A DNA stretch of 64,000 nt from Candidatus Limnocylindria bacterium (GTDB lineage: Bacteria > Chloroflexota > Limnocylindria > QHBO01), in NCBI GenBank assembly GCA_035708065.1, contig DASSTC010000049.1, forward strand, positions 1,694-65,693, in the 5' to 3' direction. The translations under genes were made by a program, and so were the position numbers. The notes beneath the pieces are model-generated. The model worked only from the letters and a program-made list of their open reading frames with translations, did not search any database and had not been told where the DNA came from. Positions 1-49,745 of this stretch are shown piece after piece. Every line of letters begins with the position of its first letter. Position 1 is the stretch's first letter.

Positions 1-1
1 G

Positions 2-8451: not shown

Positions 8452-8467
8452 CCTCCGGGCTTCGTCG

Positions 8468-16502: not shown

Positions 16503-16578
16503 TGGTGGAGCTGGGGGGACTCGAACCCCCGACCCCCTGCATGCCATGCAGGTGCTCTCCCAGCTGAGCTACAACCCC
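16503..16578 (-). tRNA. tRNA-Ala (anticodon GGC)
   Basis: Reverse complement GGGGTTGTAGCTCAGCTGGGAGAGCACCTGCATGGCATGCAGGGGGTCGGGGGTTCGAGTCCCCCCAGCTCCACCA folds as a cloverleaf with the G3:U70 alanine identity pair, anticodon loop AT-GGC-AT, T-loop GGTTCGAGTCC, encoded CCA. Confidence 0.9.
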
Positions 16579-25088: not shown

Positions 25089-26002
25089 GCCGCTGCCTCG
25101 TCGAGCCGTCGTGCCGCCTCGGACACCACGCCTGCGCCGTCCTCGGCGCGGCCATCCACGTCGATCCGGACAAGGTGCCCGTCGGGCAGCTCGTAGGCGG
25201 CTCGCAGCCGCAGCCGCGCGGCGCGCACCTCGCCGAGGGCACCGAGCGGTGCCAGGCAGCCACCGCCGACGGTCGCCAGCAGTGCGCGCTCGGCGCCGAC
25301 CGCAGTGCGTGTCGGCTGATGGTCGACGCCCGCGAGCCGTTCGCGGAGGGCCGCGTCGTCCGCTCGGATCTGGAGCGCCAGCGCGGCCTGTGCCGGCGCG
25401 GGCAGCATGATCTCGAACGGCAGGAGCGCCGCGCTCGGGATGGGGATCCCGAGCCGCTGCAGGCCGGCCGCCGCGAGCAGGAGGCCGTCGAACTCGCCGG
25501 CGCGGAGGCGGCGCAGCCGGGTCTCGACATTGCCGCGGATCGGGATGGCGACGAGATCCGGGCGGACCGCAGCCAGCTGAGCGGCCCTGCGCGTGCTGCT
25601 CGTGGCGATGCGCGCGCCGAACGGCAGGTCATCGAGCGCGGCGTCGGTGGCGGTGAGCAGCGCGTCGCGCGGATCGCCGCGCTCGAGCACCGCCCCGATG
25701 AGCAGGCGGGGATCGGTCGCGGTCGGCAGATCCTTGTACGAATGGACCACGACGTCGATCTCGCCGGCGAGCAACAAGCGCTCGAGATCCGAGGTGAACT
25801 GCCCGTCGGTGAGCTCCCAGCGGCCGCCGGGGCGTCGCTCGCTGAGGACATCACCGCGCGTTCGGACCGGTACCGGCTGCATCGGTCCCAGGCCGCCGGC
25901 GGTCATCGCGGCACACGCGATCTCGGTCTGCGCCAGCGCCAGCCGGCTGCCGCGGGTGCCGATGCGCAGCGTCCGTGGAGCGATCGGTGTGGCGGTCGTC
26001 AT
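25085..26002 (-). CDS. hemC: hydroxymethylbilane synthase (porphobilinogen deaminase)
   Basis: From ATG 26002: LRIGTRGSRLALAQT, IPIRGNVETRLRRL, cofactor Cys in GGGCLAPLGA. Confidence 0.9.
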   Translation of the reverse strand: MTTATPIAPRTLRIGTRGSRLALAQTEIACAAMTAGGLGPMQPVPVRTRGDVLSERRPGGRWELTDGQFTSDLERLLLAGEIDVVVHSYKDLPTATDPRLLIGAVLERGDPRDALLTATDAALDDLPFGARIATSSTRRAAQLAAVRPDLVAIPIRGNVETRLRRLRAGEFDGLLLAAAGLQRLGIPIPSAALLPFEIMLPAPAQAALALQIRADDAALRERLAGVDHQPTRTAVGAERALLATVGGGCLAPLGALGEVRAARLRLRAAYELPDGHLVRIDVDGRAEDGAGVVSEAARRLDEAAA

Positions 26003-27153
26003 CGTGCCTGGGCCTGCCGTCGCAGCCGAACCGTCTGGTCGTGCAGGAGCTCGTTGACGAGCGCGATCGTCATGCGTTCCACCTCGGCAAGCTGGTCCTC
26101 CGCCAGGTCGCCGTGACCGCGAAGCCGATCCAGGTGCCGTCGCCGCGCGTCCTCGGCGGCGCTCCGCAGCTCGACGATGCGCCCGGTGGCGGTGCGCTCG
26201 GCGAGCCACGCGACGAACCGGTCGCGTTCGTCGGCGAGCTCGGCCCGCAACCGGCGTTCGACAGCGGCGGGCAGGGCGTTCGTCGCGTGACCCAGCCGGT
26301 CGAGGTCGACGAGCCGCGCGCCGAGGACCGGTCGCAGCGCCGGGTCCACGGCCGAAGGCGCGCAGAGGTCGACGACGAGGCCGCGCGATCTGCTGCTGCG
26401 CAGCAACGGGCCGGCGGTTCGCGTGGCGAGGACGATCACGCCGGGATCGGCGCCCGTCTCGGCCCCGGTCTCGAATGCGCTGTCGAGCAGCATCCCGCGG
26501 TGCGGGCCACCGGGCAGCATGTTCGCCAGCTGTTCGGCGCGCTCCGCCGAACGCGAGGCGACGGTGCACCGCGTTCCCGCGGCGGCCAGCCCTGCGGCCA
26601 CCTCGCGCGCGACGATGCCGGTGCCGACGATGAGCGCGGTCTCATGCGCGCCGTGCCCCGCGATCCAGGCCAGGGCGCGCTGCGCCAGCGATCGATCGCC
26701 GCCGGGCAGCGCCGAGGAGCGCACGTGCTTCCCGAAGCGGAGGGCCCGACGCATCAGCTCGTTGAGGATCGGCCCGGTCTCGTGGCGGGCGAGTGCGGCG
26801 GTGTACGTGTCACGCACCTGGCCGAGCAGCTGCTCCTCGGCGACGACCGCGGAGTCGAGCCCGGCGACGACGGTGAGGACGCGCTCGACGGCATCGGCGC
26901 CACGAACGGCAGGCAGGGCCACGTCCTGTTCGCCGCTGTCGAGCACGGCGAGGAGCTCGGCACGGTGGCAGGTGTGCAGCAGCAGCCGCTCGGCAACACC
27001 GTCGCGGAGGGTGGCCAGGTGGTCGGCCAGGTGCTCGCGATCATCGGTCGGGAGGTCGTGGAAGGTGCCCGCGATGACGACCAGGCGGTCGAGATCGGTG
27101 CCGGGCGCGGAGGTTGGCGGCCGATCCATATCGGTCAGGGGGTGATGGGACAA
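25999..27153 (-). CDS. hemA: glutamyl-tRNA reductase
   Basis: LLHTCHRAEL (catalytic Cys region), NADPH-binding ALIVGTGIVAREVAAGL, dimerisation tail; the start could instead be the downstream MDRPP (27129). Confidence 0.85.
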   Translation of the reverse strand: MSHHPLTDMDRPPTSAPGTDLDRLVVIAGTFHDLPTDDREHLADHLATLRDGVAERLLLHTCHRAELLAVLDSGEQDVALPAVRGADAVERVLTVVAGLDSAVVAEEQLLGQVRDTYTAALARHETGPILNELMRRALRFGKHVRSSALPGGDRSLAQRALAWIAGHGAHETALIVGTGIVAREVAAGLAAAGTRCTVASRSAERAEQLANMLPGGPHRGMLLDSAFETGAETGADPGVIVLATRTAGPLLRSSRSRGLVVDLCAPSAVDPALRPVLGARLVDLDRLGHATNALPAAVERRLRAELADERDRFVAWLAERTATGRIVELRSAAEDARRRHLDRLRGHGDLAEDQLAEVERMTIALVNELLHDQTVRLRRQAQAR

Positions 27154-27469
27154 AGGCTGGATCCCGCTGACGGGTGCAGAGCTGGTGGCTCGCCAGCCTA
27201 GGCAGGGCGCCGGCCGAGGGTCAAACCTAAGTCATAGATTTGCGGCTTTGTGCGGAGATTCGGCCGGGCGGCCGTTCGCTGGCCGTGAACCCTCCGGATG
27301 CATGTCAGGCGTGCACGACGCACCCCGGAGTGCCCTCGAGGCGTTCGGATTCACACGTCCGCGTGCATGCGGGAGGGTGCGAGGGCGGTTTGAGCGGGAA
27401 CCGGCGCACAACGGTCGCGTGGTGTGCATCGGGAGGATCGGCGCTCCAGGAAGGGAGCGGAGCGAAGCG

Positions 27470-27545
27470 TGGTGGAGATGAGGGGACTCGAACCCCTGAC
27501 CCCCGCGATGCGAACGCGGTGCTCTCCCAGCTGAGCTACATCCCC
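27470..27545 (-). tRNA. tRNA-Ala (anticodon CGC)
   Basis: Reverse complement GGGGATGTAGCTCAGCTGGGAGAGCACCGCGTTCGCATCGCGGGGGTCAGGGGTTCGAGTCCCCTCATCTCCACCA: G3:U70, anticodon loop TT-CGC-AT, encoded CCA. Confidence 0.9.
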
Positions 27546-27577
27546 GGGCCGCCGGGAGTATAACAAAGCCTTGCTGC

Positions 27578-27593
27578 TAGAACATCCGTTCTA
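27578..27593. promoter_or_regulatory. LexA operator (Cheo-type SOS box, TAGAACATCCGTTCTA) embedded in the imuA promoter
   Basis: Perfect GAAC-N4-GTTC palindrome 13 nt upstream of the imuA ATG; the identical 16-mer recurs upstream of dnaE2. Flanking TTGCTG ... TATATG are plausible -35/-10 elements with the box in the spacer. Confidence 0.75.
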
Positions 27594-27605
27594 TATGATC
27601 GACCG

Positions 27606-28403
27606 ATGCACACGCAGGCTGCCCGTCCTCTCACCGATGTCCTCGAGGCGCTGCGCGAGAAAGGCCTGCGCAAGGGGGTCGGACCGATGCCCGGGCAGGT
27701 CGACGGGCCGTCGATCTCCACCGGCCATCCTCGGCTCGACGACGCGCTGCGCACCGGCGGCTGGCCTCGCGGCTCCCTCGCCCTGCTCGATGCGCCGCTC
27801 GGCAACGGCGCGACCTCGCTGGCGCTCGCCTCGCTGGCCGCCTGCCAGGCGGCCGGTGGCCTCGTCGCCTGGCTCGACCTCGAGGGCAGCTTCGACCCGT
27901 CGACCGCTGCCCGTGCGGACGTCAACCTCGAGTGGCTGCTGCTGGCACGTCCGCGTGACACCGGCGAGGCGGTGGAGCTCGCCGCCTGGCTGGCACGCAC
28001 GCGCCTGCTCGACGTCGTCGTGCTGGACCTGGGCGTGGCGGCCGTCGCCTCACGGACGCTGTCACGGCTGCCGGAGCTGCTGACCCGCTTCGGCGGCATC
28101 GTCCTGGCGCTGGCTCCCGCCGCCCGCGAGACCGTCGCCGGCGTCGCCGGGATCCGCGTCATGCTCGAGCGTCGGGCCTGGCTGTCGGTCGGCCGTGACG
28201 TGGTTGGGGAGCGGGTCGAGGCGATCGTCGCGCGTCACCGCTGGGCACTGGCCGGCGCCTCGACCGAGCTCGACCTGTGGTTCAGTGAAGGCCGGCGCGT
28301 CGACGCGCTGCTTCGGTCGCTGGCTTCGCCAGTCGCCGCCCGCGACCTCGAGCACCTGCGACCGATCGACCAGCAGCCTGCCCTCCGCGTCCTCTCCGCA
28401 TGA
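27606..28403 (+). CDS. imuA: ImuA (SulA/RecA-fold translesion mutasome protein)
   Basis: ISTGHPRLDDALRTGGWPRGSLALLDAPLGNGATSLAL ... VAWLDLEGSFDP is the ImuA signature; preceded by a LexA box and followed by imuB with ATGA overlap. Confidence 0.85.
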   Translation: MHTQAARPLTDVLEALREKGLRKGVGPMPGQVDGPSISTGHPRLDDALRTGGWPRGSLALLDAPLGNGATSLALASLAACQAAGGLVAWLDLEGSFDPSTAARADVNLEWLLLARPRDTGEAVELAAWLARTRLLDVVVLDLGVAAVASRTLSRLPELLTRFGGIVLALAPAARETVAGVAGIRVMLERRAWLSVGRDVVGERVEAIVARHRWALAGASTELDLWFSEGRRVDALLRSLASPVAARDLEHLRPIDQQPALRVLSA

Positions 28404-29620
28404 TCGATGCGCGCCTGCTGGCCCTGGTCTGGCCCGACCTCCGCCTGGCCGATGCCGACGTAGCGCCCTTCCAGCCGATGCTCGACGCGCTCGACGACCT
28501 CTCCCCGAGGATCGAGGCGGTCGACGTCGGGGTGGCGCTGGTCGATATCACGGGCCTCGGAGCGCTCTTCGGCAGCGAACGCCGGATCGCGGCACGCGCC
28601 GCAGCGCTGGCCCGCGAGGTCGCGCCGCTGGACGTCCGGGCCGGGATTGGCGACAACCGCTGGCTGGCGGTGCTCGCCGCGCGCCTCGGCCTGACAGGGG
28701 ACGCGCCGCTGCGCATCCTCGATCGGTCGGAGCTTCCCCAGCTCCCGCTCACCCTGCTGCCGGCCGATCCGGCGACGCGCCAGCGCTTCTCGCTCTTCGG
28801 GCTGACGACCTTCGGGCAGCTGGCGGCATTGCCACGCTCGGCGGTCGGTGCGCAGTTCGGCGCGACCGGCGAGCGGCTCCAGCAGCTCGCGCGCGGCAAC
28901 GACCCGCGGCCACTCGTCCCGCGCCGGCGTCCCGAGCGCCTCGTCGCCGAGCGCGCCTTCGAGCCGCCGCTGAGCGACGTCGGCGCGGCCGGTCTGGCGC
29001 TTCGCGCGCTCGTCACCGAGCTCGTCGACCGGCTGCGCGACCGCCACCTGGCGCCCGGACGCGCTGCCCTCGAGCTCGAGCGCGAGGATGCGGCACCGCT
29101 GCGCATCGAGCTTGCCTTCCCGCAGCCGGCGCTCGAGCCGGACTGGATCGCGCGCCTCCTCCTGTCACGCCTGGAGGCCGCGGCCCGTGGGTCCTTGCCA
29201 AACTTCAATCAGGACCGGCCAAGGCCGCCGGACCGGTCGAGTCAAGGACAGATGCAGGCACAGGAACTGGGCAAATCTATGCCGCACAGTCGGCATCGGC
29301 CCGATACCGCCGGCCCCAACCGGCCTAAGCCCGCTGTGGTCGGAGTTTGGCAAGCAGGCGACGACGAGCCAGGCGACGACGAGCCACAGGACGAGCCACG
29401 CATCGTGGGCATCGGTCTGGCCTTCGACCGGCTGAGCGACCCGCAGAGCCGCCAGCTGGCCGCCTTCGAGCCGCAGGCCGGTCGCTGGGAGGAGCTGCGC
29501 TGGTCGCTGGAGCGGGTGCGCGCGCGGTTCGGCGACGGCCGCCTGTGGCGTGCCGAGCACGTCCGCCCGAGCGCGTCGCTCGCCGAGCAGCGGTCGCGCC
29601 TGGTCGACATCGGACCATGA
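28400..29620 (+). CDS. imuB: ImuB (inactive Y-family polymerase-like mutasome subunit), carrying an in-frame palindromic-element insertion
   Basis: N-terminal RLLALVWPDLRL ... VALVDITG ... RAGIGDNRWLAVLAA Y-family fold lacking catalytic acidic residues; ImuA/ImuB/DnaE2 context. Confidence 0.85.
   Translation: MIDARLLALVWPDLRLADADVAPFQPMLDALDDLSPRIEAVDVGVALVDITGLGALFGSERRIAARAAALAREVAPLDVRAGIGDNRWLAVLAARLGLTGDAPLRILDRSELPQLPLTLLPADPATRQRFSLFGLTTFGQLAALPRSAVGAQFGATGERLQQLARGNDPRPLVPRRRPERLVAERAFEPPLSDVGAAGLALRALVTELVDRLRDRHLAPGRAALELEREDAAPLRIELAFPQPALEPDWIARLLLSRLEAAARGSLPNFNQDRPRPPDRSSQGQMQAQELGKSMPHSRHRPDTAGPNRPKPAVVGVWQAGDDEPGDDEPQDEPRIVGIGLAFDRLSDPQSRQLAAFEPQAGRWEELRWSLERVRARFGDGRLWRAEHVRPSASLAEQRSRLVDIGP
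29194..29354. repeat. small palindromic insertion element (TIR CTTGCCAAACT / AGTTTGGCAAG), in frame inside imuB
   Basis: 11-bp perfect terminal inverted repeats with imperfectly complementary extension to ~30 bp; a second copy with the same termini occurs in frame in dnaE2 (37541-37720). Confidence 0.65.
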
Positions 29621-29871
29621 CCAGGCTGTATGCGGACCATCCGCTGGTCCAGGTCGAGACCGATGCCGCCGGGACGCCGACCCGCCTGCGGATGGACGGC
29701 ATCGGTCATGGGGAGGTGGGGATCTGCAACCGCTGGCGCGTCGACGACGACTGGTGGCGCGCCCCGGTCGCGCGGCTCTACTTCAAGCTGGTGACGCGCG
29801 ACGGCCTGCTGTGCACGATCTTCCTCGACGAGATCCGCGGCACCTGGCACCTCGAGCGCATCTTCGACTAG
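29617..29871 (+). CDS. hypothetical 84-aa protein translationally coupled to imuB
   Basis: ATG overlaps the imuB stop (ATGA); strong GC3 bias; Trp-rich (NRWRVDDDWWRAP); no family recognised. Confidence 0.55.
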   Translation: MTRLYADHPLVQVETDAAGTPTRLRMDGIGHGEVGICNRWRVDDDWWRAPVARLYFKLVTRDGLLCTIFLDEIRGTWHLERIFD

Positions 29872-30608
29872 GCCGATGACCAGGCAGATGCGATGAGCGC
29901 CAGCCCGAGGATCGCCACCAGCACGAACACCGAGCGCCGGAAGACCGGCTCGGGCAGGCGCCGCAGGATCGGTCCGCCGAGCAGCGTGCCGGCCAGCACG
30001 CCGATCGCCGCAACGACGACCACCGGCCAGTTGCCGAGCATCTCGCCGCCGCCGGTCGCCAGGTAGACCGGGATTCGGGCGAAGTCCACGACCAGCCCGA
30101 TCGCCGTGGCGGTGGCCACCACCGCGCGGCCGTCCATCGGGAAGTGGAGCAGCGCCGCGGAGCGGATCCCGCCCTGGTTGCCGACCAGCCCGCCGAAGCC
30201 ACCGGAGAGCGCCCCGGCCAGGATTGCCCACGGCGCGCCGCTGATCCGGAAGCGCCGCGACAGCCCGCTGGCGCCGGAGACGCCGGCGAAGATGAGGAGG
30301 ATGCCCAGGACGACCGACAGCAGGGAGCTGCTGGCCGCTGCATGCAGCAGCGCCCCCACCAGGCCGCCCGCTGCGCTCGCCGCGCCGAACGTCAGCAGCA
30401 CGCGGCGGTCGATCGCATCGCGCAGCATCCAGGCGCGCAGCGCCGTGGCGGCGACGTGCGGCAGGGCGACGAGCAGCACCGCGACCTTGGTGCCGTAGCT
30501 CAGCGCCAGCAGCGGCGTCAGCATGCTGCCGATGCCGAAGCCGGCGATCGCCGCGACGCCACCCGCCAGGACCGCGACCAGCAGCGTGGCGAGGAGCAGC
30601 AGGAGCAT
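29868..30608 (-). CDS. TauE/SafE (DUF81) family sulfite/anion exporter membrane protein
   Basis: 246 aa, 7-8 TM helices with duplicated Gly-rich halves (GFGIGSMLTPLL ... GGFGGLVGNQGG). Confidence 0.75.
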   Translation of the reverse strand: MLLLLLATLLVAVLAGGVAAIAGFGIGSMLTPLLALSYGTKVAVLLVALPHVAATALRAWMLRDAIDRRVLLTFGAASAAGGLVGALLHAAASSSLLSVVLGILLIFAGVSGASGLSRRFRISGAPWAILAGALSGGFGGLVGNQGGIRSAALLHFPMDGRAVVATATAIGLVVDFARIPVYLATGGGEMLGNWPVVVVAAIGVLAGTLLGGPILRRLPEPVFRRSVFVLVAILGLALIASAWSSA

Positions 30609-30654
30609 CGGCCGATGCTAGGCATGTGGCACCGCTCGTGCACCCGGCAAGCGC

Positions 30655-31080
30655 ATGACTGATTTCGAACGGAACCCGGGGGCCATCGACGACCCGAGCG
30701 GTCGCGGCGGCCAGGATGTCGACCCGCACCGCCTGCCGCCCGGCGACACGGCCGATGACGTGGGCGGCCCGGGCGAGCCGGAGGCTGCCGAGCTCGACCT
30801 GCCGGGGCCGGACGACCCGGTGGCGTGGAACTATGTCGAGAAGGGAACGAAGGTCGTCGGCCCGAACGGGGAGAAGCTCGGCAGCGTGAAGGAGATGCTC
30901 GGCACCGACGAGGGCATCTTCCATGGCGTGGCCGTCGATGCTGACGGCCACGGCATCGTGCGCATGGTGCCCGCGGCACAGGTGACGCTGCTCACGCCAT
31001 CGAAGGTCGGCGTCGCGGTCGACGCCGACGCGCTGAAGCGTCTCGAGCGCTACGAGCCGCCGTCGACCGTCACCGTCTAG
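30655..31080 (+). CDS. PRC-barrel-like (DUF2171-like) hypothetical protein
   Basis: 141 aa; acidic N-terminus then a beta-barrel-like VVGPNGEKLGSVKEMLGTDEGIFHGVAVDADGHGIVRMVPAAQV segment. Confidence 0.5.
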   Translation: MTDFERNPGAIDDPSGRGGQDVDPHRLPPGDTADDVGGPGEPEAAELDLPGPDDPVAWNYVEKGTKVVGPNGEKLGSVKEMLGTDEGIFHGVAVDADGHGIVRMVPAAQVTLLTPSKVGVAVDADALKRLERYEPPSTVTV

Positions 31081-31089
31081 CATCGCGGC

Positions 31090-31851
31090 GTGAGCGACTA
31101 TCGCGTCGACCGGCTCTTCCCGGATCCGCAGGCCGGTCTCCTGCTCGACGAGGCGTTCGCCGACCTGGCGCTGCCCTCGCCGCCTGCCGGGCGGCCGTAC
31201 GTCGCGGTCAACATGGTCACGAGCGTCGACGGACGGGCGCAGGTCGCCGGCGCGGCGGAGGGCCTGGGCTCGCGGGTCGACCGCCGCCTGATGCGGCTGC
31301 TGCGCGCCGGGTTCGACGCGATCGGCACCGGGTCCGGGACGCTGCGTGCCGCCGGATTCTGGCCGCGGCTGCCGGACGACCTCGCGGCGCGACGGCGCAG
31401 CGCCGGCATGGCGGGGCAGCCGGTCAGCGTGGTGATCGCCGGATCGACCCCCGTCCCGCTCGAGCGGTGGCACGCCGGGGACGAGCCGCGGCTCCTGTTC
31501 GTCGGACGCGACAATCCGCAGGAGCCTCCGACGGACGGCAGCCAGCTGCTTCGCGCGCCGACTGCCGATCCGGCGCCGGCGTGGATCCTCGACGCGCTGG
31601 CAGAGCGCGGGATCGCCTCGCTCCTGCTCGAGGGCGGACCGACCGCCAACGCTGCCTTCCTGGCCAATCAGACGCTCGACGAGATCTTCTGGACGCTCGG
31701 CGCCTCGCTCGTCGGCAGCGACGCCCTGGGCATGATCGCGCCGATCCCCGGCGGCTCGCCGTGGGCTGACGATCCTCGGCGCGGCGCGCTGGTCAGCGTC
31801 CATCGCAACGGCGATGAGCTCTTCCTGCGCTACCGCTTCGCGGCGGCGTAG
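31090..31851 (+). CDS. RibD C-terminal-domain (dihydrofolate-reductase-like) reductase
   Basis: YVAVNMVTSVDGR ... GSGTL ... LLLEGGPTANAAFL resembles the RibD_C / DHFR-like NADPH-binding fold. Confidence 0.7.
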   Translation: MSDYRVDRLFPDPQAGLLLDEAFADLALPSPPAGRPYVAVNMVTSVDGRAQVAGAAEGLGSRVDRRLMRLLRAGFDAIGTGSGTLRAAGFWPRLPDDLAARRRSAGMAGQPVSVVIAGSTPVPLERWHAGDEPRLLFVGRDNPQEPPTDGSQLLRAPTADPAPAWILDALAERGIASLLLEGGPTANAAFLANQTLDEIFWTLGASLVGSDALGMIAPIPGGSPWADDPRRGALVSVHRNGDELFLRYRFAAA

Positions 31852-31860
31852 CATCGCTCC

Positions 31861-32769
31861 ATGGCCAACCTCGATCTCGGCCGGCTCGGCATCTGGGGCC
31901 ATCTCGACAGCCTCGACATCGATGCCGCGCGCGCCTACGCGCGGCGCGTCGACGAGCTCGGCTACGGCACGCTGTGGGTGCCGGAGACCGTCGGCCGTGA
32001 CCCGTTCACCCTGCTCGGCCTGATCGCCGGCTCGACGGGCTCGGTGCGGCTGGGCACCTCGATCTCCAGCATCTGGGGGCACGACGCGCAGTCGACCCGC
32101 ATGGCGGCGATGACCCTCCACGAGGCGACCGGCGGCCGGTTCGTGCTGGGGCTCGGCGTTTCGCACCCCCATCTCGCGGAAAAGCTGCGCGGCCACGACT
32201 ACGGCCGCCCGCTGACCCAGATGCGCGAGTTCCTGGCCGCCTACCGTTCCGCGATCTATCGAGGACCGATGCCCCCCGAACCCGTGGCCGATCCGCCCGT
32301 GCTGCTGGCGGCACTCCGCGAGCGGATGCTGGCGCTGTCAGCCACCGACGCGGACGGCGCGTTCCCGTACCTGGTGACGCCCGCGCGCGTGGCCGAGATG
32401 CGCGCGCTGCTCGACGGCGCGGTCGCCGGCGCCGACGCGCCACGTGCCACCCTGGCCGTCAGCCTGCCGGTCGCGCTCGACTCGATGGTCGACGACACGC
32501 AGGCCGCGGCACGCGGCTACCTCGCGCCGTACCTGCGCACGCCGAACTACCACGCCAGCTGGACGCTGCAGGGCTTCGAGGAGGCCGACTGGCAGAAGCC
32601 CGGCAGCGATCGGTTGGTCGACGCGATGGTGGCGTGCGGCAGCGTCGACGACGTGCGGCAGCGGATCGCCGCGTTCCTCGATGCGGGAGCGGACCACGTG
32701 GCGCTCATCCCGCTCGACGCCGAGGGCAGGACCGAGCACCTCGAAACGGTCGAGGCGTTCGCCGGCTGA
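31861..32769 (+). CDS. LLM-class (luciferase-like) F420-dependent oxidoreductase
   Basis: LGIWGHLD ... GYGTLWVPE ... RFVLGLGVSHP ... DAGADHVALIP, typical of TIGR03564/03619-like F420 LLM proteins. Confidence 0.75.
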   Translation: MANLDLGRLGIWGHLDSLDIDAARAYARRVDELGYGTLWVPETVGRDPFTLLGLIAGSTGSVRLGTSISSIWGHDAQSTRMAAMTLHEATGGRFVLGLGVSHPHLAEKLRGHDYGRPLTQMREFLAAYRSAIYRGPMPPEPVADPPVLLAALRERMLALSATDADGAFPYLVTPARVAEMRALLDGAVAGADAPRATLAVSLPVALDSMVDDTQAAARGYLAPYLRTPNYHASWTLQGFEEADWQKPGSDRLVDAMVACGSVDDVRQRIAAFLDAGADHVALIPLDAEGRTEHLETVEAFAG

Positions 32770-32820
32770 CGAACGCCTCGATCCTCCGTTGCCCGGCGAC
32801 TCCGTTGAGCCGCCGCATCG

Positions 32821-35148
32821 TCAGCCGCCGATGAGCTTCAGCAGCTGGCTCTGCACGTTGGTGCTGACCACGCCGGTCCCGCCGAGGATCACCACCGTCT
32901 TGGCCCCCAGGCGCTTGATCTCGGTCGACGTCGCGGCCGGGATCGTGTCCTTGGTCACGAGCAGCAGCGGCGCGCCCTGGACCGATGCCGGTGGACCGCC
33001 GGCCAGCGCATCAGGGAAGTTCAGGCCGTTCGCCACGTAGACCACCTTCGCCCCGGTCGGGAACACCGCCTTCGAGACCGCCACGGCGGTCGACCAGCGG
33101 TCGGTGCCGGCGAGGCGAGTGACGTTGGCCGTCACCGTCTTCAGCTCGTTGACGGCCGTGCCGGAGACGACGCCCGTCCCGCCGAGCACGACGATCCTCG
33201 CCGGCTTCAGCCGCTTGAGCTCGGCCATGATCACCGTCGGCACGTCGTCCTTGGTGGTCAGCAGGATCGGCCCGTGCTGTCGCCCCGCCGCCGGGACGCC
33301 GGCGAGCGCGTCGGGGAAGTTCACGCCCGTCGCCACGTACACGACCGGCACCGGGATGGTGCTGAACGTCGTCGAGGAGATCGTCGCCGAGGTCGAGTAG
33401 CGGTCCGCGCCCGCGCGCCGCACGACGACCGACGAGTACTTGGCGAGGTCCGATTTGATCTTGTCGGAGACGACCCCGGTGCCCCCGACGACCACGATCT
33501 TCTTCGGCTTCAGCCGCGTCAGCTCGCTCGCCGTCTCGGTTGGGATCCCGGTTGGCGCCACCAGCAGGACCGGTCCGCCTTCCTTCGCCGCTGCCGGCCC
33601 GGCCGACAGCGCATCGGCGAATCCGGTCCCGGTGGCGATATAGACGACCGGCACCGGGACGGTCTTGTATCGGTTGAAGGAGACCGATGCCGCCGTCGCG
33701 TAGCGGTTCGCGCCGGAGTAGCGCACCACGGTCGGCTTCGTCGTCGGCGTCGCGGTCGCGGTCGGCTTCGGGGTAGCCGTCGCGCTCGGTTTCGGGGTCG
33801 CCGTGGCGGTCGGCTTCGCTGTCGCCGACGGCGTGGCGGTCGGCGGCGGGCTCGACAGCGAGGTGAAGCTGTGCAGGTAGTAGCCCGACTTCCGGTCGGA
33901 CCCGACGACGAGCATGCCCGTCGTCGCGCTCGGATTCTGCTTGCTGGTCGACGGGTCGTTGATCGCGGTGTCGCTACTGCTCTGCATCAGCGCCGTCCCC
34001 TTGCCCGCCGGGAACGTGAGCGTGCTCAGCGGGGCCCACTTGTAGTAGACGACGCCGCCATTCTCGGACTCGGCGGCGAAGAAGTAGATGCGGCTATTGG
34101 CCGTGTCGATCGCGATCTGCGGTCGGGTCTGGTTGTTGTCCACGCCGGCGACGTCACGCAGGGTCACCCCGTGCGTGCTCCAGGCCCCCGTGGCGCTGCG
34201 AGCCGCGAGGTAGGTGACGTACTCCTCGGACTGGTCGGTCATCGTCTTCAGCGCCGCGTAGACCACGCCGTTCAGGGTTTTGAGGTTCATGTGGTCGTTG
34301 GCGATCGTCTTGCCCCAGGCGACCTTCTCGCGCGTCGACCAGGTCCCGGTGGGGTCGCCGTCGGTATGCGTCGAGAACCAGAAGCCGGTCTCACCGTTTC
34401 CATCGGCCACCTGGTCGCTCCACATCACGCCGATCTTGTTCGGGGCGAAGGCGATCACCGCCGAGATGTCGTCTGCAGCGGGCGAAGAGCCCTGACTGGG
34501 CAGCACCTGATTTGACCAGGTGAGGCCGTCAGTGCTGCTCGCAATCCACACGTCGTCCCGGGCCGTGTTGGCGTTGGGCAGCGTGTAGGTGACCCACATG
34601 CGCCCGGTCGAGTCCCGCGCGATCGTCGCCGACTCGGCGGCGCCGGCATCGATCGTGACGCCGGTCAGGATCGGGAAGCCGGCGTCCGCGGTGTAGGTGC
34701 CCGATGCGAACGTGTAGCGGAAGACATGCACGCCCGGCGTCGACGCCGAGTCGTCGGTCGAGACGACCCACAGCTTGTTGTTGGCGCCGTCGAACAGGTA
34801 ATCGCCGTGCGACTTGTTGCGCTCGTCGATCTTGACGCCGGTGGTCGTCCAGGTCTGCGTCGACGTATTGAGCTGGTAGATCTCGTACTCGCCGTTGCCG
34901 CCGCCGGCCGGCAGGTGGAACAGGCCGCCCCACCACGAGCCGCCGGCGTACCAGACCTTGGACTGCGGCTTGTCGGCGGTTGCCCGGAACGTGTTGGTGG
35001 TACTGGCGGGCTGGTACTGGAAGTCCCGATAGCCGGCCGTGACGGCCACGGCGTTGCTCGTCCCCGTCGCGATGGTGACCGCGGCGACCATGGCGGCGAC
35101 GAAGGCGACGAACGGCAGACGGAGTGAGCGCAGGGTACGCGCGGGCAA
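32821..35148 (-). CDS. secreted surface protein: N-terminal BNR/sialidase-like beta-propeller region, Pro/Thr/Ala linker, three CWB2 (cell-wall-binding 2) repeats
   Basis: Signal peptide from TTG 35148 after a GGGGGAGG SD; STDGLTWSN BNR-like motif; three C-terminal ~100-aa repeats (RYSGANRYATAASVS...VVGGTGVVS) of the CWB2 type. Hand counts of three 60-nt lines in this gene gave 60-68% GC against ~78% for one flanking line. Confidence 0.75.
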   Translation of the reverse strand: MPARTLRSLRLPFVAFVAAMVAAVTIATGTSNAVAVTAGYRDFQYQPASTTNTFRATADKPQSKVWYAGGSWWGGLFHLPAGGGNGEYEIYQLNTSTQTWTTTGVKIDERNKSHGDYLFDGANNKLWVVSTDDSASTPGVHVFRYTFASGTYTADAGFPILTGVTIDAGAAESATIARDSTGRMWVTYTLPNANTARDDVWIASSTDGLTWSNQVLPSQGSSPAADDISAVIAFAPNKIGVMWSDQVADGNGETGFWFSTHTDGDPTGTWSTREKVAWGKTIANDHMNLKTLNGVVYAALKTMTDQSEEYVTYLAARSATGAWSTHGVTLRDVAGVDNNQTRPQIAIDTANSRIYFFAAESENGGVVYYKWAPLSTLTFPAGKGTALMQSSSDTAINDPSTSKQNPSATTGMLVVGSDRKSGYYLHSFTSLSSPPPTATPSATAKPTATATPKPSATATPKPTATATPTTKPTVVRYSGANRYATAASVSFNRYKTVPVPVVYIATGTGFADALSAGPAAAKEGGPVLLVAPTGIPTETASELTRLKPKKIVVVGGTGVVSDKIKSDLAKYSSVVVRRAGADRYSTSATISSTTFSTIPVPVVYVATGVNFPDALAGVPAAGRQHGPILLTTKDDVPTVIMAELKRLKPARIVVLGGTGVVSGTAVNELKTVTANVTRLAGTDRWSTAVAVSKAVFPTGAKVVYVANGLNFPDALAGGPPASVQGAPLLLVTKDTIPAATSTEIKRLGAKTVVILGGTGVVSTNVQSQLLKLIGG

Positions 35149-35586
35149 CAGAACCTCCCCCTCGGTGCGAGGAATGATCTTCCGCCAGAGAGCAGCGGAA
35201 CGATGGAGCGTGCAGCCTACCCCAAAGTACTGGCGCAGTACCAGACCCGGTGCCCGGCGCTGTTGACGTGCGGAAACGGTTTGGTCTTGATCCGCTGTCG
35301 AACTTCGTGCCGCGACTTCGCACCGGCGACTCCGGCTGCGCCGAGGGCGCACATGCCGTCCTGGTGCGCGCTAACCGAGTCCGCGGCGCCCAGCGGCGGC
35401 TTCGTCGTGCTCGGTCACGCTCAGGTCCAGCGTCAGGGTGCCTCTGCCACTCACCTAACGCGCACCAGCGCGGCATATGCGCGGTCGAAGCGAAGCGCCG
35501 GGCCTGGTGCGCTCCGGAGGCGCAGTCGCACGGCCGAAGTCCATTCGAATCGGCTGCTGAGCTCACGCCTGCACCCCCGTACCAGT

Positions 35587-35602
35587 TAGAACATCCGTTC
35601 TA
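35587..35602. promoter_or_regulatory. LexA operator (TAGAACATCCGTTCTA) in the dnaE2 promoter
   Basis: Identical 16-mer to the imuA box (18-bp identity including the flanking TA), 14 nt upstream of the dnaE2 ATG; TATACT -10-like hexamer overlaps its 3' edge. Confidence 0.75.
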
Positions 35603-35616
35603 TACTGCACGGTCCG

Positions 35617-38600
35617 ATGCCGACGCCGGACGACCCCGCCGCCTACTGCGAGCTGCACGCGCACAGCAACTTCAGCTTCCTCGACGGCGCGAGCCACGTC
35701 GAGGATCTGGTGGCCCTGGCGGCGCTCCTCGATCTCCCGGCGCTGGCGATCACCGATCACGCCGGCCTGTACGCCGCCGTCCGGCTGGTCAAGGCAGCCG
35801 AGCAGACCCAGACCGATGCCGCACGGTCCGCTGGCCTCTCCCCGGTCCGCCCCATCATCGGCCTGGAGCTGTCGATTCCCCGTGACGAGCACGAGCTGCG
35901 GCTCGCGCGTCGCGGTCGCAAGCTGAACGACCCGCTGCGTGGCGAGCGCGCCAGCCGCGGCTGGCCGGGCGAGCTGCATGCCGGACCGATGCCCGGCGAC
36001 CATCTCGTGCTGCTGGCACGCGATGGCGACGGCTACACCGCCCTGTCGCGCCTGGCCAGCCGCGGCCATCTCGCCGGGGAGAAGCAGTTCCCGATCTTCG
36101 AGCGCTCGCTCGTCGAGGCGGCGCTCGACGAGGCACGCGGCCACCTCATCGGGCTGTCCGGCTGTCGCAACGGCGAGGTGCCGCGCCGCCTGCTGGCCGG
36201 CGACGACGGCGAGGCGCTGGCCACGGCGCAACGCTGGGCGAGCCACTTCCCGGAGGGAGGCTTCGGCGTGGAGCTCAGCCATCACCTGCAGCCCGACGAC
36301 GACTGGCTCGTCGCACAGCTCGCCGAGCTGGCGCGGCGCGCCGGGCTGCCCACGGTGGTCACCAACGAGGTGCACTACGCCGAGCCCGGCGGGCATCGGC
36401 TTCAGGACGTCCTCGTCTGCATCCGCCACGGGGCGACGCTGACCGAGGCCCGCGAGCTGCTGCTGCCGAACGCCGAGTACCGGCTGAAGTCAGCGGCCGA
36501 GCTCGCAGCCATCGGTGCCGTCCTGCCCGAGGCGAGTGCGCGCCGGGCGTGGCGGCAGGGGATGGCCGAGGCGGCCCGCATCGGTCAGGCCTGCCGGCTG
36601 GATCTCAATTTCGAGCGCTATCGGTTTCCGGGCTTCACGGTCCCCGAGGGCGAGACGCCGTTCTCATATCTGTACCAGCTTGCACACGACGGCTTACTGC
36701 GCCGTTACCGGCCCATTACCAAGCGCGCACTGCAGCAGCTGACCCACGAGCTGGACATCATCGAGCGGACGCACCTCGCCGAGTTCTTCCTGATCGTGTG
36801 GGACCTGATGGAGTTCGCGCGACGGCGCGGGATCATCGGGCAGGGGCGGGGGAGCGCCGGCGACTCGATCGTGGCCTACTGCCTGGGCATCACCAAGGTC
36901 GATCCGATCGAGCACAAGCTGCTCTTCGAGCGCTTCATCAACGAGGCGCGCACGCTGCCCGACATCGACCTCGACTTCGACGTCAACCGCCGCGAGGAGG
37001 TGATCCAGTACCTGTACACCACGTACGGCGCGGATCACGCCGCGATGGTCTGCACCATCGTCACCTACCGGGCCCGATCGGCCGTGCGCGAGGTGGCCAA
37101 GGCGCTGGGCTTCCCGGCGGCATCGGTCGACCGGCTGGCCAAGGCGCTCGACACGCGCGATGCCTCGGACGTTGCCCGTGACCTGGCGTTGGACGGCTCG
37201 TTCGCCTGGCTCTTCGACGAGCTGGGGATCGACATGGATGCGGCGGCGGTGCCACCCGGCCGCGACGGTCGCGGCCAGCCGGTCTCGGAGGGCGGCTGGT
37301 ACCCGCCGAAGCGGCCGCGCGTCTTCGACCAGTCGGTGACCGCCATCCGATTCGAGGCGACCCAGACGAAGCGCTACGCTGCGGGCGTTGTGCCCGAGCA
37401 CTTGCCGCAGCCCCGCGACACCGGGTCGCCCGGTCCGGCCAGCGAGCGGCGCGCCGTCGTCCGCGTCGATCCGGAGAGCGGGATGCCGATCGAGGAGCGA
37501 CGTGCGCGGTCGGTGATGTTGATCGCTGGCGGTCCGCAACCTGGCCAAACTTCAACCAGGATCGGCTTAGACAAAGACAAGGCGTCCGGGATGGGTGGCG
37601 GCGACGGAAATCGGCCCGCAAACCCCGCAAATCTTGGCACCCAAGGCGCTCGGAAGCCATCCGCGGCCTCGGCGCCCGGTACTCGCCTGCCTAAGCCCGG
37701 TGTCATTCAAGTTTGGCAAGAATCGGGCGAATCAGGCGCGGATGCGACGGATGCGACCGATGCCACCGATCCCACCGATGGGACCGCAGCCACGGCAGCC
37801 ACCACTCCCCACGCCGCTCCCCGCAACCGGTGGCAATGGCTGCTCCAGCTGTGCGGCGAGATCGACGCCTTCCCGCGTCACCTCGGCATCCACGTCGGCG
37901 GAATGCTGGTGACCCGCACCCCGCTCATCGACCTCGTGCCGATCGAAAAGGCGACGATGCCGAACCGGGTCGTGACCCAGTACGACAAGGAGGACATCGA
38001 GCAGCTCGGCCTGGTGAAGATCGACCTGCTCAGCCTGCGCACCCTCGGCGTGGTGGCCGATGCGCTCGACCGCATCGAGCGCGACACGCAGACGCGGCCC
38101 GACCTCGATCAACTCCCCCACGACGACCCCGACGTCTTCAAGACCATCCGCACTGCCGATACGGTCGGCATGTTCCAGATCGAGAGCCGCGCGCAGATGC
38201 AGGCGCTGCCCAAAGCCCGTCCCGAGCGCTTCGAGGACCTCGTCGTGCAGGTCGCGATCATCCGGCCCGGCCCGATCCAGGGCAACGCCGTGCATCCCTA
38301 CCTGCGACGGCGTGCCGGTGCCGAGGAGGTGACCTACCTCCATCCGAGCCTTGAGCCGATCCTCAGCGACACGCTCGGCGTGATCCTCTACCAGGAGCAG
38401 GTGATGCAGATCGCCATCGACGTCTGCGGCTACACGCCGCTCGAGGCGGACATCTTCCGCAAGGCGATGGGCAGCCATCGCAGCCATCGCGAGATGGAGA
38501 AGGAGCACGCGCGCTTCGTGACCGGCGCCCAGCGCACCGGGCTGACAGGCGACGACGCCGAGGAGCTCTTCAAGCGCTGCGGCGCATTCGCCGAGTTCGG

Positions 38601-39570
38601 CTTCGCTCGAGCGCACGCCGCGGCCTTCGCCAAGATCACCTACGACACCGCCTGGCTGAAGCTGCATTACCCGGCGCACTACTACGCCGGCATCCTCAAC
38701 AACCAGCCGATGGGCTTCTACTCCCCGGCGGTGATCGTCAACGACGCCAAGCGTCACGGCATCGCCGTCCTGCCCGTCGACGTCAACGAGTCGGCATGGG
38801 AGCACGACACCCGACCGATGCCGGACGGCAGGTTCGCCCTGCGCCTGGGGCTGAGCCAGGTCAAGGGCATCGGCGAGGCCGAGCGGGAGCGTCTCACCAT
38901 CGAACGTGCAACCGGTCCGTATCGGTCCGTCAGGGAGTTCGTGGCGCGCACCGGACTGGGCGAGCAGGTCATCGAACGGCTGATCAGCATCGGTGCCTTC
39001 GACTGGACCGATGCGCCGCGTCGCGAGCTGCTCTGGCAGCTGCGCAGCACCCTGGCCGACGCGAACCCCGCGCATCCCGCGCTGGGCCTGACCGATGACG
39101 CCCAGCGCACGCTGGGTGCCTCCCTGCCGGCGATGACCGATGCAGAACGGGTCGCCGCCGACTACCGCGACACCGGCGTCTCGCCGAATCTCCACGCCGT
39201 CGAGCTGTACCGCGAGCGCCTGGCTGGTGCCGGCGTGATCCCGGTGGCCGATGCCGGCCGGCGCCGGGATCGCTCGATGATCCGGCTGGCAGGGCTGGCG
39301 GTCAGCATCCAGCACCCGATGACCGCCAAGCACTTCGTCTTCATCGCGCTCGAGGACGAGAGCGGCATGATCAACGTCACCCTGCGGCCGGACGTCTACC
39401 AGCGCTACCGCGGCCTGCTGCATCGCCACCCGCTGCTGGTGATCGACGGCGTCCTGCAGGTGGAGGGCGAGGTCCTCAACGTCGTCGCGCGGCGAGTGCG
39501 CGGCGTCGACGAGGTCGTGGCCGAGACGACCCGGATGGATCTCACGCGGCAGCAGCGGATGTTCCGCTAG
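35617..39570 (+). CDS. dnaE2: error-prone DNA polymerase DnaE2 (ImuC), with a ~200-aa low-complexity insertion
   Basis: N-terminus YCELHAHSNFSFLDGASHVEDLV (the DnaE2-type PHP start), palm/fingers motifs (HVGGMLV, PDIDLDF), OB fold; 1317 aa against ~1050-1100 typical. Confidence 0.9.
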   Translation: MPTPDDPAAYCELHAHSNFSFLDGASHVEDLVALAALLDLPALAITDHAGLYAAVRLVKAAEQTQTDAARSAGLSPVRPIIGLELSIPRDEHELRLARRGRKLNDPLRGERASRGWPGELHAGPMPGDHLVLLARDGDGYTALSRLASRGHLAGEKQFPIFERSLVEAALDEARGHLIGLSGCRNGEVPRRLLAGDDGEALATAQRWASHFPEGGFGVELSHHLQPDDDWLVAQLAELARRAGLPTVVTNEVHYAEPGGHRLQDVLVCIRHGATLTEARELLLPNAEYRLKSAAELAAIGAVLPEASARRAWRQGMAEAARIGQACRLDLNFERYRFPGFTVPEGETPFSYLYQLAHDGLLRRYRPITKRALQQLTHELDIIERTHLAEFFLIVWDLMEFARRRGIIGQGRGSAGDSIVAYCLGITKVDPIEHKLLFERFINEARTLPDIDLDFDVNRREEVIQYLYTTYGADHAAMVCTIVTYRARSAVREVAKALGFPAASVDRLAKALDTRDASDVARDLALDGSFAWLFDELGIDMDAAAVPPGRDGRGQPVSEGGWYPPKRPRVFDQSVTAIRFEATQTKRYAAGVVPEHLPQPRDTGSPGPASERRAVVRVDPESGMPIEERRARSVMLIAGGPQPGQTSTRIGLDKDKASGMGGGDGNRPANPANLGTQGARKPSAASAPGTRLPKPGVIQVWQESGESGADATDATDATDPTDGTAATAATTPHAAPRNRWQWLLQLCGEIDAFPRHLGIHVGGMLVTRTPLIDLVPIEKATMPNRVVTQYDKEDIEQLGLVKIDLLSLRTLGVVADALDRIERDTQTRPDLDQLPHDDPDVFKTIRTADTVGMFQIESRAQMQALPKARPERFEDLVVQVAIIRPGPIQGNAVHPYLRRRAGAEEVTYLHPSLEPILSDTLGVILYQEQVMQIAIDVCGYTPLEADIFRKAMGSHRSHREMEKEHARFVTGAQRTGLTGDDAEELFKRCGAFAEFGFARAHAAAFAKITYDTAWLKLHYPAHYYAGILNNQPMGFYSPAVIVNDAKRHGIAVLPVDVNESAWEHDTRPMPDGRFALRLGLSQVKGIGEAERERLTIERATGPYRSVREFVARTGLGEQVIERLISIGAFDWTDAPRRELLWQLRSTLADANPAHPALGLTDDAQRTLGASLPAMTDAERVAADYRDTGVSPNLHAVELYRERLAGAGVIPVADAGRRRDRSMIRLAGLAVSIQHPMTAKHFVFIALEDESGMINVTLRPDVYQRYRGLLHRHPLLVIDGVLQVEGEVLNVVARRVRGVDEVVAETTRMDLTRQQRMFR
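37541..37720. repeat. second copy of the palindromic insertion element (TIR CTGGCCAAACTTCAA / TTCAAGTTTGGCAAG), in frame inside dnaE2
   Basis: Shares the termini and the internal CCTAAGCCCG block with the imuB copy; both copies end by encoding ...PKP.V..VWQ.. in the host frame. Confidence 0.65.
37738..37803. repeat. 9-bp tandem repeat (GATGCGACS x5, then GCAGCCACS x2), in frame inside dnaE2
   Basis: gatgcgacg gatgcgacc gatgccacc gatcccacc gatgggacc gcagccacg gcagccacc, encoding DAT-DAT-DAT-DPT-DGT-AAT-AAT, immediately 3' of the palindromic element. Confidence 0.7.
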
Positions 39571-39666: not shown

Positions 39667-40455
39667 ATGAACGCCGTCCTGCAGTCTCGCGTCGACGTCG
39701 CGCCACTGCCCGCCACGACCGCCGCGGTCGTCATCGTCCCGGCCTACAACGAGGAGGCCGGGCTGGCGGCCGTGCTGCACGAGCTCGCTCCGCTGCGCGA
39801 GCAGGGCATCGAGGTGCTCGTCGTCGACGACGCCTCGACCGATCGCACCGTGCTTGTCGCCGAGGCGGCCGGCGTGCGGGTCATTCGCCGCCGCCGTAAC
39901 GGCGGCAAGGGTGCGGCCATCCGCACGGGCGTCGCGGCGGTCGACGCGCCGAAGGTCGTGACCATCGACGCCGACGGTACCTATCCGGTCGAGGCGATCG
40001 TGCCGATCGTGCGCCTGCTCGACGATCACGACATCGTCCTCGGCGCGCGCACAGTCGGGCGCGGCAACATCCCCATCTTCAACCGGCTGGGCAACACCGC
40101 GCTGCGGCTCGTGATCCGCGCGGCGTCGGGCTTCGGATCCGCGGATCCGCTCACCGGCCTGTACGGCATTCGCCGCGAGCATCTCGACGCGATGGAGCTG
40201 CGCTCCGACGGCTTCGCGATCGAGGCCGAGATCGCGGTGAAGAGCGCCCGGCTCGGACTGCGGCACGTCGACTACCCGATCGGCTACGCCGAGCGCATCG
40301 GCGAGTCGAAGCTCAACCCGGTGCGCGACGGGAGCGTCATCGCCGCCACGATCCTGCGGCTGGTGCTCGACGGCAGCCTCACCCGGCTGACGCGCCGCCG
40401 GCGACGGCGCCGCGCTCGCTTGCTGGCTCGTGCCCGGCGGATGACCCGCAGCTGA
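39667..40455 (+). CDS. family-2 glycosyltransferase (polyprenyl-phosphate sugar synthase, DPM1/ArnC-like)
   Basis: VVIVPAYNEE ... VVDDASTD ... DADGTYP motifs of GT2 (DxD); 262 aa. Confidence 0.8.
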   Translation: MNAVLQSRVDVAPLPATTAAVVIVPAYNEEAGLAAVLHELAPLREQGIEVLVVDDASTDRTVLVAEAAGVRVIRRRRNGGKGAAIRTGVAAVDAPKVVTIDADGTYPVEAIVPIVRLLDDHDIVLGARTVGRGNIPIFNRLGNTALRLVIRAASGFGSADPLTGLYGIRREHLDAMELRSDGFAIEAEIAVKSARLGLRHVDYPIGYAERIGESKLNPVRDGSVIAATILRLVLDGSLTRLTRRRRRRRARLLARARRMTRS

Positions 40456-49503: not shown

Positions 49504-49745
49504 AGGGAGGGCCGTCGCGGTTCCAGTACGGAGGGTCCTGGAACCACAACGGCCCTCATGAAGACGCTGATTGCGAACGCCCGACCGACGAGGGTGAGGT
49601 CTCTAGCGTCACCGCTGGCCCGAGCTTCCGTTGGTGACAACCATCGCCCGAGGGTGTCGGCGGGATATGGTCCGCTCTGCGTCTACGACGCGCCGAGTCA
49701 GCACGTTGCGTGCCAAGCAGCGTGGTGACCGGCTGTGACCGGTGC

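Follow-up and report, generated by a model that had tools for sequence, protein, structure and literature searches.

The window analysed in this study, a 64-kb stretch (71% GC) of the genome of a Candidatus Limnocylindria bacterium, contains the genes imuA, imuB, orf84 and dnaE2 (imuC) of a translesion mutasome. Our results indicate that this locus is very probably a LexA-repressed mutasome of Limnocylindria whose genes are divided between two SOS transcription units that share one strand. The first unit is proposed to comprise imuA, imuB and orf84, the last of which encodes the C-terminal domain of ImuB (ImuB-C) as a separate protein, with overlapping gene ends and a promoter whose spacer is filled by the palindrome TAGAAC-N4-GTTCTA, and the second unit would comprise dnaE2, transcribed from another promoter that is built in the same way.

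Genes were called on the basis of third-position GC content together with matches to Pfam and NCBIfam. An earlier reading of the window, made from its letters only (here, the sequence-only reading), had named the genes of this region, and their identities were confirmed by these matches, apart from a PRC-barrel assignment that was marginal and a BNR domain that was undetected. Relatives were collected by a genome scan with alignment of orf84 homologues, by which 181 loci were confirmed; the best 80 of the 181, plus further loci, gave a comparison set of 82 non-redundant loci, covering about 80 Limnocylindria species. The orf84 homologues were partly labelled Candidatus Limnocylindria (Chloroflexota), and the scan loci were all of Limnocylindria type by sequence, a few of them residing in bins with other taxonomic labels. 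Synteny was determined by tblastn with the window proteins against the comparison loci. The gene identities, the conservation and position of the operators, the synteny and the homology of orf84 to ImuB-C are computed results.

The 16-mer TAGAACATCCGTTCTA was found in exactly two copies in the window, one upstream of imuA (bp 27578-27593) and the other upstream of dnaE2 (bp 35587-35602), as had been noted earlier, and no match to it appeared in 100 dinucleotide-preserving shuffles, even when 2 mismatches were allowed. It has the form of a Cheo-type LexA operator, being an inverted repeat GAAC-N4-GTTC (extended, AGAAC-N4-GTTCT). Relaxed box searches of the window gave no additional good boxes; a GAAC-N4-GTTC at 42238 lacks the TA/TA flanks, lies inside an open reading frame (ORF) for a PMT_2 glycosyltransferase and was treated as a chance occurrence. 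The spacing of 14 bp given for both sites in the sequence-only reading applies to imuA only when counted from the 12-mer core (ending at 27591) and to dnaE2 only when counted from the 16-mer (ending at 35602); with uniform counting from the 16-mer, the distance is 12 nt at imuA and 14 nt at dnaE2, and from the core it is 14 nt at imuA and 16 nt at dnaE2. In the relatives, 65 of 66 imuA loci and 49 of 52 dnaE2 loci had a perfect GAAC-N4-GTTC at a distance of 2-62 nt upstream of the gene, and the extended box of the class was TAGAAC-N4-GTTCTA, with nearly invariant arms and TA flanks and a variable 4-nt spacer (12 forms at imuA and 26 at dnaE2). The proposal of LexA-type operators ahead of both imuA-imuB-orf84 and dnaE2 thus gained from the comparison, the box being conserved across the class at both promoters while its spacer varies. 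No particular meaning attaches to the identity of the two 16-mers, since from the spacer frequencies of the relatives identical spacers are expected in about 3% of genomes and were observed in 3 of about 45, so that this identity needs no special explanation; a recent promoter duplication as the origin of the two copies was rejected on the same spacer frequencies.

The imuA promoter (bp 27570-27599, plus strand) consists of a -35-like CTTGCT (bp 27570-27575), the LexA box and a -10 element TATGAT (bp 27594-27599), and in the dnaE2 promoter core (bp 35587-35606, plus strand) the box overlaps a -10 element TATACT (bp 35601-35606). Alignment of 67 imuA promoters gave the consensus ggggCTTc.c..a.TAGAACATcTGTTCTATcAt, and that of 50 dnaE2 promoters gave ggggCTT..C..AATAGAACA..CGTTCTATcaT.g..cGTCCGATGg. 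In both, the box is placed between a -35-like CTTc/g element, about 6 nt upstream, and a TATCAT-type -10 element, which its right arm abuts or overlaps; judged from these motifs, a repressor that works by occluding the promoter would need its site in just this position. The distance from the -10 element to the start codon is 6-10 nt in the aligned promoters (6 nt for imuA and 10 nt for dnaE2 in the window), which suggests that both units are transcribed as leaderless or near-leaderless mRNAs, and the imuA mRNA is probably leaderless. A 1-mismatch box was present in one relative (L025) in the gap of about 60 nt between the LLM gene and dnaE2. In another relative (L007), genes for a toxin-antitoxin pair (RHH-type antitoxin, 84 aa; RelE/ParE-like toxin, 93 aa) were inserted between imuA and imuB (bp 8195-8800), and imuB there has a box of its own, TAGAACATTCGTTCTAC, at 8768, so that the cassette lies in three LexA-fronted pieces.

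Neither lexA nor recA is present in the window, in agreement with the sequence-only reading, as tblastn with Chloroflexota LexA and RecA matched imuA only; the link of the box to lexA was therefore sought in other sequences. In Gram-positive bacteria and Chloroflexi, the established consensus for LexA is GAAC-N4-GTTC, and to our knowledge this also holds for Dehalococcoides. A contig (L087) found via the distant ImuB-C homologue P0097, assigned to Anaerolineae on the basis of its LexA matches, carries in contiguous order lexA (minus strand), imuA, imuB (419 aa), a gene for ImuB-C (84 aa, DUF6504), dnaE2 (1042 aa), an SMC-like gene and recA, and its divergent lexA-imuA intergenic region contains TTGACAAGAACAGATGTTCTATAGTATAAT followed by a second box with one mismatch. 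In a second outgroup locus (L090), which has a split of 1.2 kb, GAACAGATGTTC is located 43 nt before dnaE2. Among 120 listed metagenome occurrences of TAGAACANNNGTTCTAT, an arbitrary sample, 6 lay within about 60 nt of a lexA homologue, directly upstream of it, and about 8 more were beside Y-family, imuA or dnaE2 genes. It might be argued that the palindrome serves another repressor instead of LexA, e.g. a clade-specific helix-turn-helix regulator of the imu and dnaE2 genes, its likeness to the Cheo box being coincidental, as about 100 of the 120 listed occurrences had no SOS gene detectable by our small query set and the link to lexA is drawn from outside Limnocylindria. We consider this extremely improbable: the motif equals the consensus mentioned above and stands in the lexA promoter of a Chloroflexota relative having the same cassette, the number of lexA homologues directly downstream of it is far above chance, and the imuABC cassette is a classic LexA target (PMC3901139). 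A metagenome box was also observed directly upstream of a radical-SAM, SplB-like gene encoding a CxxxCxxC motif (L170, bp 1-374, minus strand), which fits a wider SOS regulon under this operator in high-GC taxa. A literature search on Limnocylindria with LexA, on LexA with F420 and on DUF6504 returned nothing relevant.

The imuA gene (bp 27606-28403, plus strand) encodes a RecA-like protein of 265 aa (Pfam RecA, 2.9e-19), which matched NCBIfam ImuA_translesion with 3.5e-10 and 40 bits, under the 150-bit cut-off of that family. Alignment to RecA (3cmu) revealed a degenerate Walker A motif, GNGATS instead of GxxxxGKT, in which GKT is changed to GAT and the lysine is lost. The gene lies directly ahead of imuB in the window as well as in each of the 73 loci with upstream sequence, and its stop overlaps the imuB start by 4 nt. 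The product of the imuB core (bp 28400-29620, plus strand; 406 aa) has IMS and IMS_C matches, and its alignment to Pol IV (7yll) begins only at Pol IV residue 88, with SIDEAYLD replaced by VDVGVALVD; the region of the first catalytic Asp is absent, and the Y-family palm and fingers are short of about 60 residues at the N-terminus. For this N-terminal region (bp 28400-28490), the open frame offers no start codon further upstream, and the protein is 349-407 aa long in the relatives. From the point at which the alignment begins and the replaced motif, ImuB is predicted to be a catalytically dead, N-terminally short Y-family homologue. Its C-terminal part consists of a low-complexity linker, a motif RQLAAFE and a helix, without a fused ImuB-C domain; RQLpAFE and the helix, GRWEELRWSLERl..RFGeGRLWRA, are conserved in 70 loci. 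The architecture thus differs from that of canonical ImuB (a clamp motif, a RecA-NT-like motif and a fused ImuB-C) in that ImuB-C is separate. The window ImuB had no exact-sequence record.

The dnaE2 gene (bp 35617-39570, plus strand) encodes 1317 aa with PHP, DNA_pol3_alpha, finger, HHH_6 and OB domains, and it belongs to NF004225, "error-prone DNA polymerase", with 1056.7 bits against a cut-off of 939. Comparison with the 1042-aa Anaerolineae DnaE2 and with the relatives mapped an insertion of about 207 aa to the palm region (residues ~532-738, window bp 37210-37830), with a conserved portion PRDTGSPGPAS..R.DPESGMPIEERR and a variable, low-complexity remainder. An intein was considered for this long protein and rejected, as no intein or Hint domain was detected and the insertion is common to the relatives. 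The DnaE2 proteins of the class are 1237-1363 aa long, and that of L090 has 1532 aa. A smaller insertion of about 50 aa was noticed in the PHP domain.

The start codon of orf84 (bp 29617-29871, plus strand) overlaps the stop of imuB (ATGA), and its homologues across the class have 84 aa and are 65-93% identical. Although orf84 itself is below Pfam detection, a profile search with it retrieved 1021 cluster representatives, mostly standalone proteins of about 84 aa, and the same type of domain was fused to the C-terminus of the ImuB-like proteins P0133 (9e-15), P0195 (6e-12) and P0227 (4e-11) and to the RecA-like protein P0194; Pfam DUF6504 was assigned to P0227 and P0097. The predicted structure is seven-stranded and all-beta (pLDDT 90), and sequence and fold searches with orf84 gave no significant PDB neighbour. 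ImuB-C has been described as a beta-barrel of novel fold (PMC12926913), with which the model and its lack of a PDB neighbour agree. Taken together, the profile matches to ImuB C-termini, the carriers of DUF6504 and the all-beta model identify orf84 as a standalone ImuB-C, i.e. a detached tail domain of ImuB and a part of the mutasome. It is therefore not the unrelated gene of unassigned function that it had been taken for; the sequence-only reading had in fact counted it among the genes between the two modules while its own title placed it within the imuAB module.

The gene order on the coding strand was invariant in the comparison set, namely imuA, imuB, orf84, the PRC-like gene (in 44 loci), the RibD_C gene, the LLM gene, a variable stretch of 0.08-6.7 kb, and dnaE2. 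In 40 of 42 loci the last gene followed within 10 kb on the same strand, at 3.1-8.5 kb from orf84 (median, 5.7 kb), and in none of 52 loci did orf84 adjoin dnaE2 (minimum gap, 3.1 kb). Because the two are never contiguous and the RibD_C and LLM genes are present in all of these loci, the split is ancient and class-wide. The layout had been called neither the contiguous nor the standard split form; it is the invariant one of its class, and a split with separate SOS boxes has been published (PMC3901139). Likewise, six unrelated genes had been placed between the modules, and this description fits neither orf84, nor the RibD_C and LLM genes (61/61 loci), nor the PRC-like gene (44/82), and is left with two variable insertions. 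These are the gene for a TauE/SafE family transporter (bp 29868-30608, minus strand; Pfam TauE, 3.6e-26), found at the orf84/PRC junction in 4 of the 82 other loci, and that for a CWB2 surface protein with three CWB2 repeats (bp 32821-35352, minus strand; Pfam CW_binding_2, 4.2e-58), found at the LLM/dnaE2 junction in one other locus, that of the closest relative (L008). They are lineage-specific, later insertions, the only ones between the modules of the window. The N-terminal 540 aa of the CWB2 protein gave no BNR domain at E<=1, and the BNR part of its earlier label was dropped.

These distributions also bear on the possibility that the block of about 6 kb was recently inserted or horizontally acquired in the genome of the window, breaking a contiguous cassette. 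Such a contiguous imuA-imuB-ImuB-C-dnaE2 order does exist in the Anaerolineae contig, the TauE and CWB2 genes are rare at these places, and the GC content falls to 0.66-0.70 over the CWB2 gene. However, the split is class-wide, with orf84 and dnaE2 apart in all 52 loci and the RibD_C-LLM pair always present between them, and both promoters are conserved in the class, so that only part of the block is recent. A recent insertion is therefore very unlikely as the origin of the split and is refuted for the block as a whole; the check by synteny suggested in the sequence-only reading supported insertion for the TauE and CWB2 genes only. The orf84/PRC junction carries different cargo by lineage, i.e. 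the TauE gene (minus strand), a plus-strand ORF of about 300 aa, or nothing; the ORF, with the motif FRVRPATPDD...FDVFIPAV, was seen in an insertion of about 1 kb between orf84 and PRC in eight loci (L019, L020, L027, L052, L054, L056, L071 and L077).

Three genes of the middle block, PRC-like (bp 30655-31080), RibD_C-type reductase (bp 31090-31851; Pfam and NCBIfam) and F420-dependent LLM oxidoreductase (bp 31861-32769; TIGR03620, above cut-off), form a tight unit on the plus strand with 9-nt gaps. The PRC-barrel assignment of the first was retained as a marginal match only (21.0 bits against a cut-off of 21.2). Of the loci whose sequence extended for 3.5 kb or more beyond orf84, all 61 had the RibD_C and LLM genes; the PRC-like gene was present in 44 of the 82 loci. 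A sigma54-like -24/-12 element, TGGCACCGCTCGTGC (bp 30627-30641, plus strand), is located 13 nt upstream of the PRC-like ATG and shows the features expected of such a promoter, GG-N10-GC within TGGCAC-N5-TTGC at a fixed distance to the start. The corresponding motif TGGCAC-N5-GTGC (consensus, gcgTGGCACCgctCGTGCa) preceded the start codon of the PRC-like gene by 12-20 nt in 40 of 44 loci, e.g. at bp 10272-10286 in L001 and bp 10270-10284 in L004, and only about 24 matches occurred elsewhere in 2.33 Mb. A second exact match in the window (bp 49701-49715, minus strand), for which the closest ORF start on that strand is about 220 nt away, is probably due to chance. Tblastn searches for RpoN and an enhancer-binding protein gave no match in 1.26 Mb of collected sequence, the queries being approximate ones; sigma54 has been reported only in "some Chloroflexi" (PMC3162934). 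In the PRC-less loci, a -10-like element, GGTACCATCGccgcATG (TACCAT + 6 nt + ATG), precedes RibD_C within about 30 nt of the orf84 stop.

It is conceivable that the PRC-like, RibD_C and F420-LLM proteins assist the mutasome or belong to the SOS regulon, their genes being reached by read-through from the imuA promoter; as a redox module, with RibD_C as a pyrimidine/pterin reductase, they might process damaged nucleotides or contribute to folate/thymidylate supply in the SOS response, which would explain their fixation in the cassette. The constancy of the pair speaks for this, since all 61 loci have RibD_C and LLM in the same order and on the same strand even with ImuA identity as low as 53%, while the flanking genes hemA (bp 25999-27231, minus strand) and GT2 (bp 39667-40455, plus strand) are conserved in 6 and 2 loci only; moreover, the next gene starts 27-50 nt after orf84 in about 24 loci, and in L004 everything from imuA through dnaE2 lies on one strand. 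On the other hand, no locus has a GAAC-N4-GTTC before PRC or RibD_C, and the block has promoter-like elements of its own, sigma54-like or TACCAT-type, which argues against its direct control by the SOS response. In the window the convergent TauE gene separates orf84 from the block, and the outgroups L087 and L090 lack PRC-like, RibD_C and LLM genes. In addition, tRNA-Ala(CGC), which has no obvious link to translesion synthesis, is equally conserved beside imuA (59/59 loci), so that synteny alone is no proof of a functional link for RibD_C and LLM. On balance, we regard an accessory role, whether as SOS members or as a redox module, as unlikely, yet less so than either of the two alternatives dealt with above.

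We thus return to two LexA-controlled units as the best explanation of the locus. In undamaged cells, LexA dimers would occupy both operators and block RNA polymerase; upon DNA damage, RecA-stimulated self-cleavage of LexA would release both units together. The dead Y-family core of ImuB is expected to bind the beta clamp via QLxAF, the Walker-A-defective ImuA and the separate beta-barrel ImuB-C would serve as adaptors, and DnaE2 would be the polymerase copying damaged DNA. The PRC-like, RibD_C and LLM genes would stay outside the SOS units as a separate unit, fixed between imuB-C and dnaE2 since the root of the class and driven by a promoter of its own that is sigma54-like in the window and consists of a plain -10 where PRC is lacking, and the TauE and CWB2 genes would be later insertions at two cargo-accepting junctions.

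Several points weigh against this explanation or limit it. The LexA of Anaerolineae, used as query, gave no Limnocylindria-named match among the 120 listed, which bore only Anaerolineae or unspecific Chloroflexota names, and a box upstream of lexA was seen in L087 and 6 metagenome loci of other taxa, so that we infer autoregulation through the box within Limnocylindria from outside that class. The -35 elements are weak, and a generic promoter and terminator scan of the window found nothing, a result that is uninformative at 71% GC. In some relatives RibD_C starts 27-41 nt after orf84, where read-through from imuB-C is possible. For ImuB, the assignment of RQLpAFE as clamp-binding and of the helix as RecA-NT-like follows from resemblance only, and LexA binding, induction by damage and assembly of the complex are likewise predictions from sequence.

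The tRNA-Ala(CGC) gene (bp 27470-27545, minus strand), identified by ARAGORN and Rfam, is divergent from imuA and was upstream of it in all 59 loci checked; it is a conserved neighbour and not part of the mutasome. A tRNA-linked genomic island was considered and rejected, since the tRNA is fixed and imuA lies on its 5' side, leaving no integration scar. Its -10 element TATACT (bp 27558-27563, minus strand) is conserved as GAGTATAGCA in the relatives, and the distance from this element to the left arm of the LexA box is 17 nt in the sub-lineage of the window and 27 nt in other sub-lineages; in the former, LexA bound to the imuA box could also occlude the -35 region of the tRNA promoter. Another tRNA gene, tRNA-Ala(GGC) (bp 16503-16578, minus strand), is also located upstream of the cassette, and the tRNA-Ala pair recurs upstream of imuA in many relatives, with a spacing of 1.4-6 kb and variable genes between.

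Three known systems can be compared with this locus. A split imuA'-imuB/dnaE2 SOS mutagenesis cassette was reportedly characterised in Mycobacterium tuberculosis by Warner and co-workers in 2010. The locus of the window resembles the M. tuberculosis cassette in having a RecA-like ImuA, a Y-family ImuB that is dead, and DnaE2, and in having imuAB and dnaE2 as separate units, each with a LexA box of the GAAC-N4-GTTC type. It differs in that 1) only 6 kb separates the units, which share a strand and keep the original order, whereas they are at distant loci in M. tuberculosis, 2) ImuB lacks the C-terminal domain, which is a separate 84-aa protein, and about 60 N-terminal residues, and 3) DnaE2 has the insertion of about 207 aa and the host belongs to an uncultured class of Chloroflexota. 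The split imuA'-imuB/dnaE2 cassette of M. tuberculosis and other bacteria is credited to Erill et al. (2006), as cited in PMC3901139, where arrangements with a LexA box at both the imuA'-imuB and the imuC loci, and with all three genes apart and a box at each, are described.

The second system is DnaE2X, in which an inactive PolY, a standalone ImuB-C and RecA make up a "split ImuB" (Timinskas and Venclovas; PMC6511836, PMC12926913), with examples in Kyrpidia tusciae and in the lexA-imuY-orf-imuC operon of Deinococcus deserti (PMC6511836, PMC12926913). Systems with standalone ImuB-C have been reported to be without ImuA, RecA being the presumed substitute (PMC6511836), and in the 2026 classification ImuA is paired only with fused ImuB (DnaE2A) (PMC12926913). 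Like DnaE2X, our locus has an inactive Y-family gene followed by a small gene for standalone ImuB-C, together with DnaE2 and LexA control; unlike DnaE2X, which is defined by the absence of ImuA, both it and L087 have a dedicated RecA-like imuA in front and thus combine canonical and split-ImuB features. The third is the contiguous lexA-imuA-imuB-imuC operon of Pseudomonas putida and Alphaproteobacteria, attributed to Abella et al. (2004) in PMC3901139. The order imuA, imuB, dnaE2 and the control by LexA are shared with it, and L087 also keeps the adjoining lexA; at the window locus, by contrast, lexA is missing, dnaE2 is detached with its own operator, and the operator is of the Gram-positive instead of the proteobacterial type.

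The locus is therefore mostly ordinary, a split LexA-controlled mutasome of a known kind, in a layout that is the rule in its lineage. Its novelty is modest and resides in the combination of ImuA, a split ImuB (inactive core plus separate ImuB-C) and DnaE2, which is absent from the classifications of PMC6511836 and PMC12926913, both covering complete genomes only; the fixation of the RibD_C/LLM pair inside the cassette is the other new element, of limited extent. The known rule that each piece of a disrupted imu cassette retains or acquires a LexA operator is upheld here in an uncultured soil lineage, and the toxin-antitoxin insertion in L007 shows the gain of a LexA operator happening again. 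If canonical ImuB originated through fusion of a Y-family core with ImuB-C, ImuA together with a split ImuB is the intermediate that one would expect; alternatively, this combination may have come from fission of a canonical ImuB. The role of ImuB-C is poorly understood, and the locus also provides a natural system in which this domain occurs as a protein of its own, open to study alone. If a redox module did work with the mutasome, selection would explain why all 61 loci retained RibD_C and LLM during the turnover of the genes around them.

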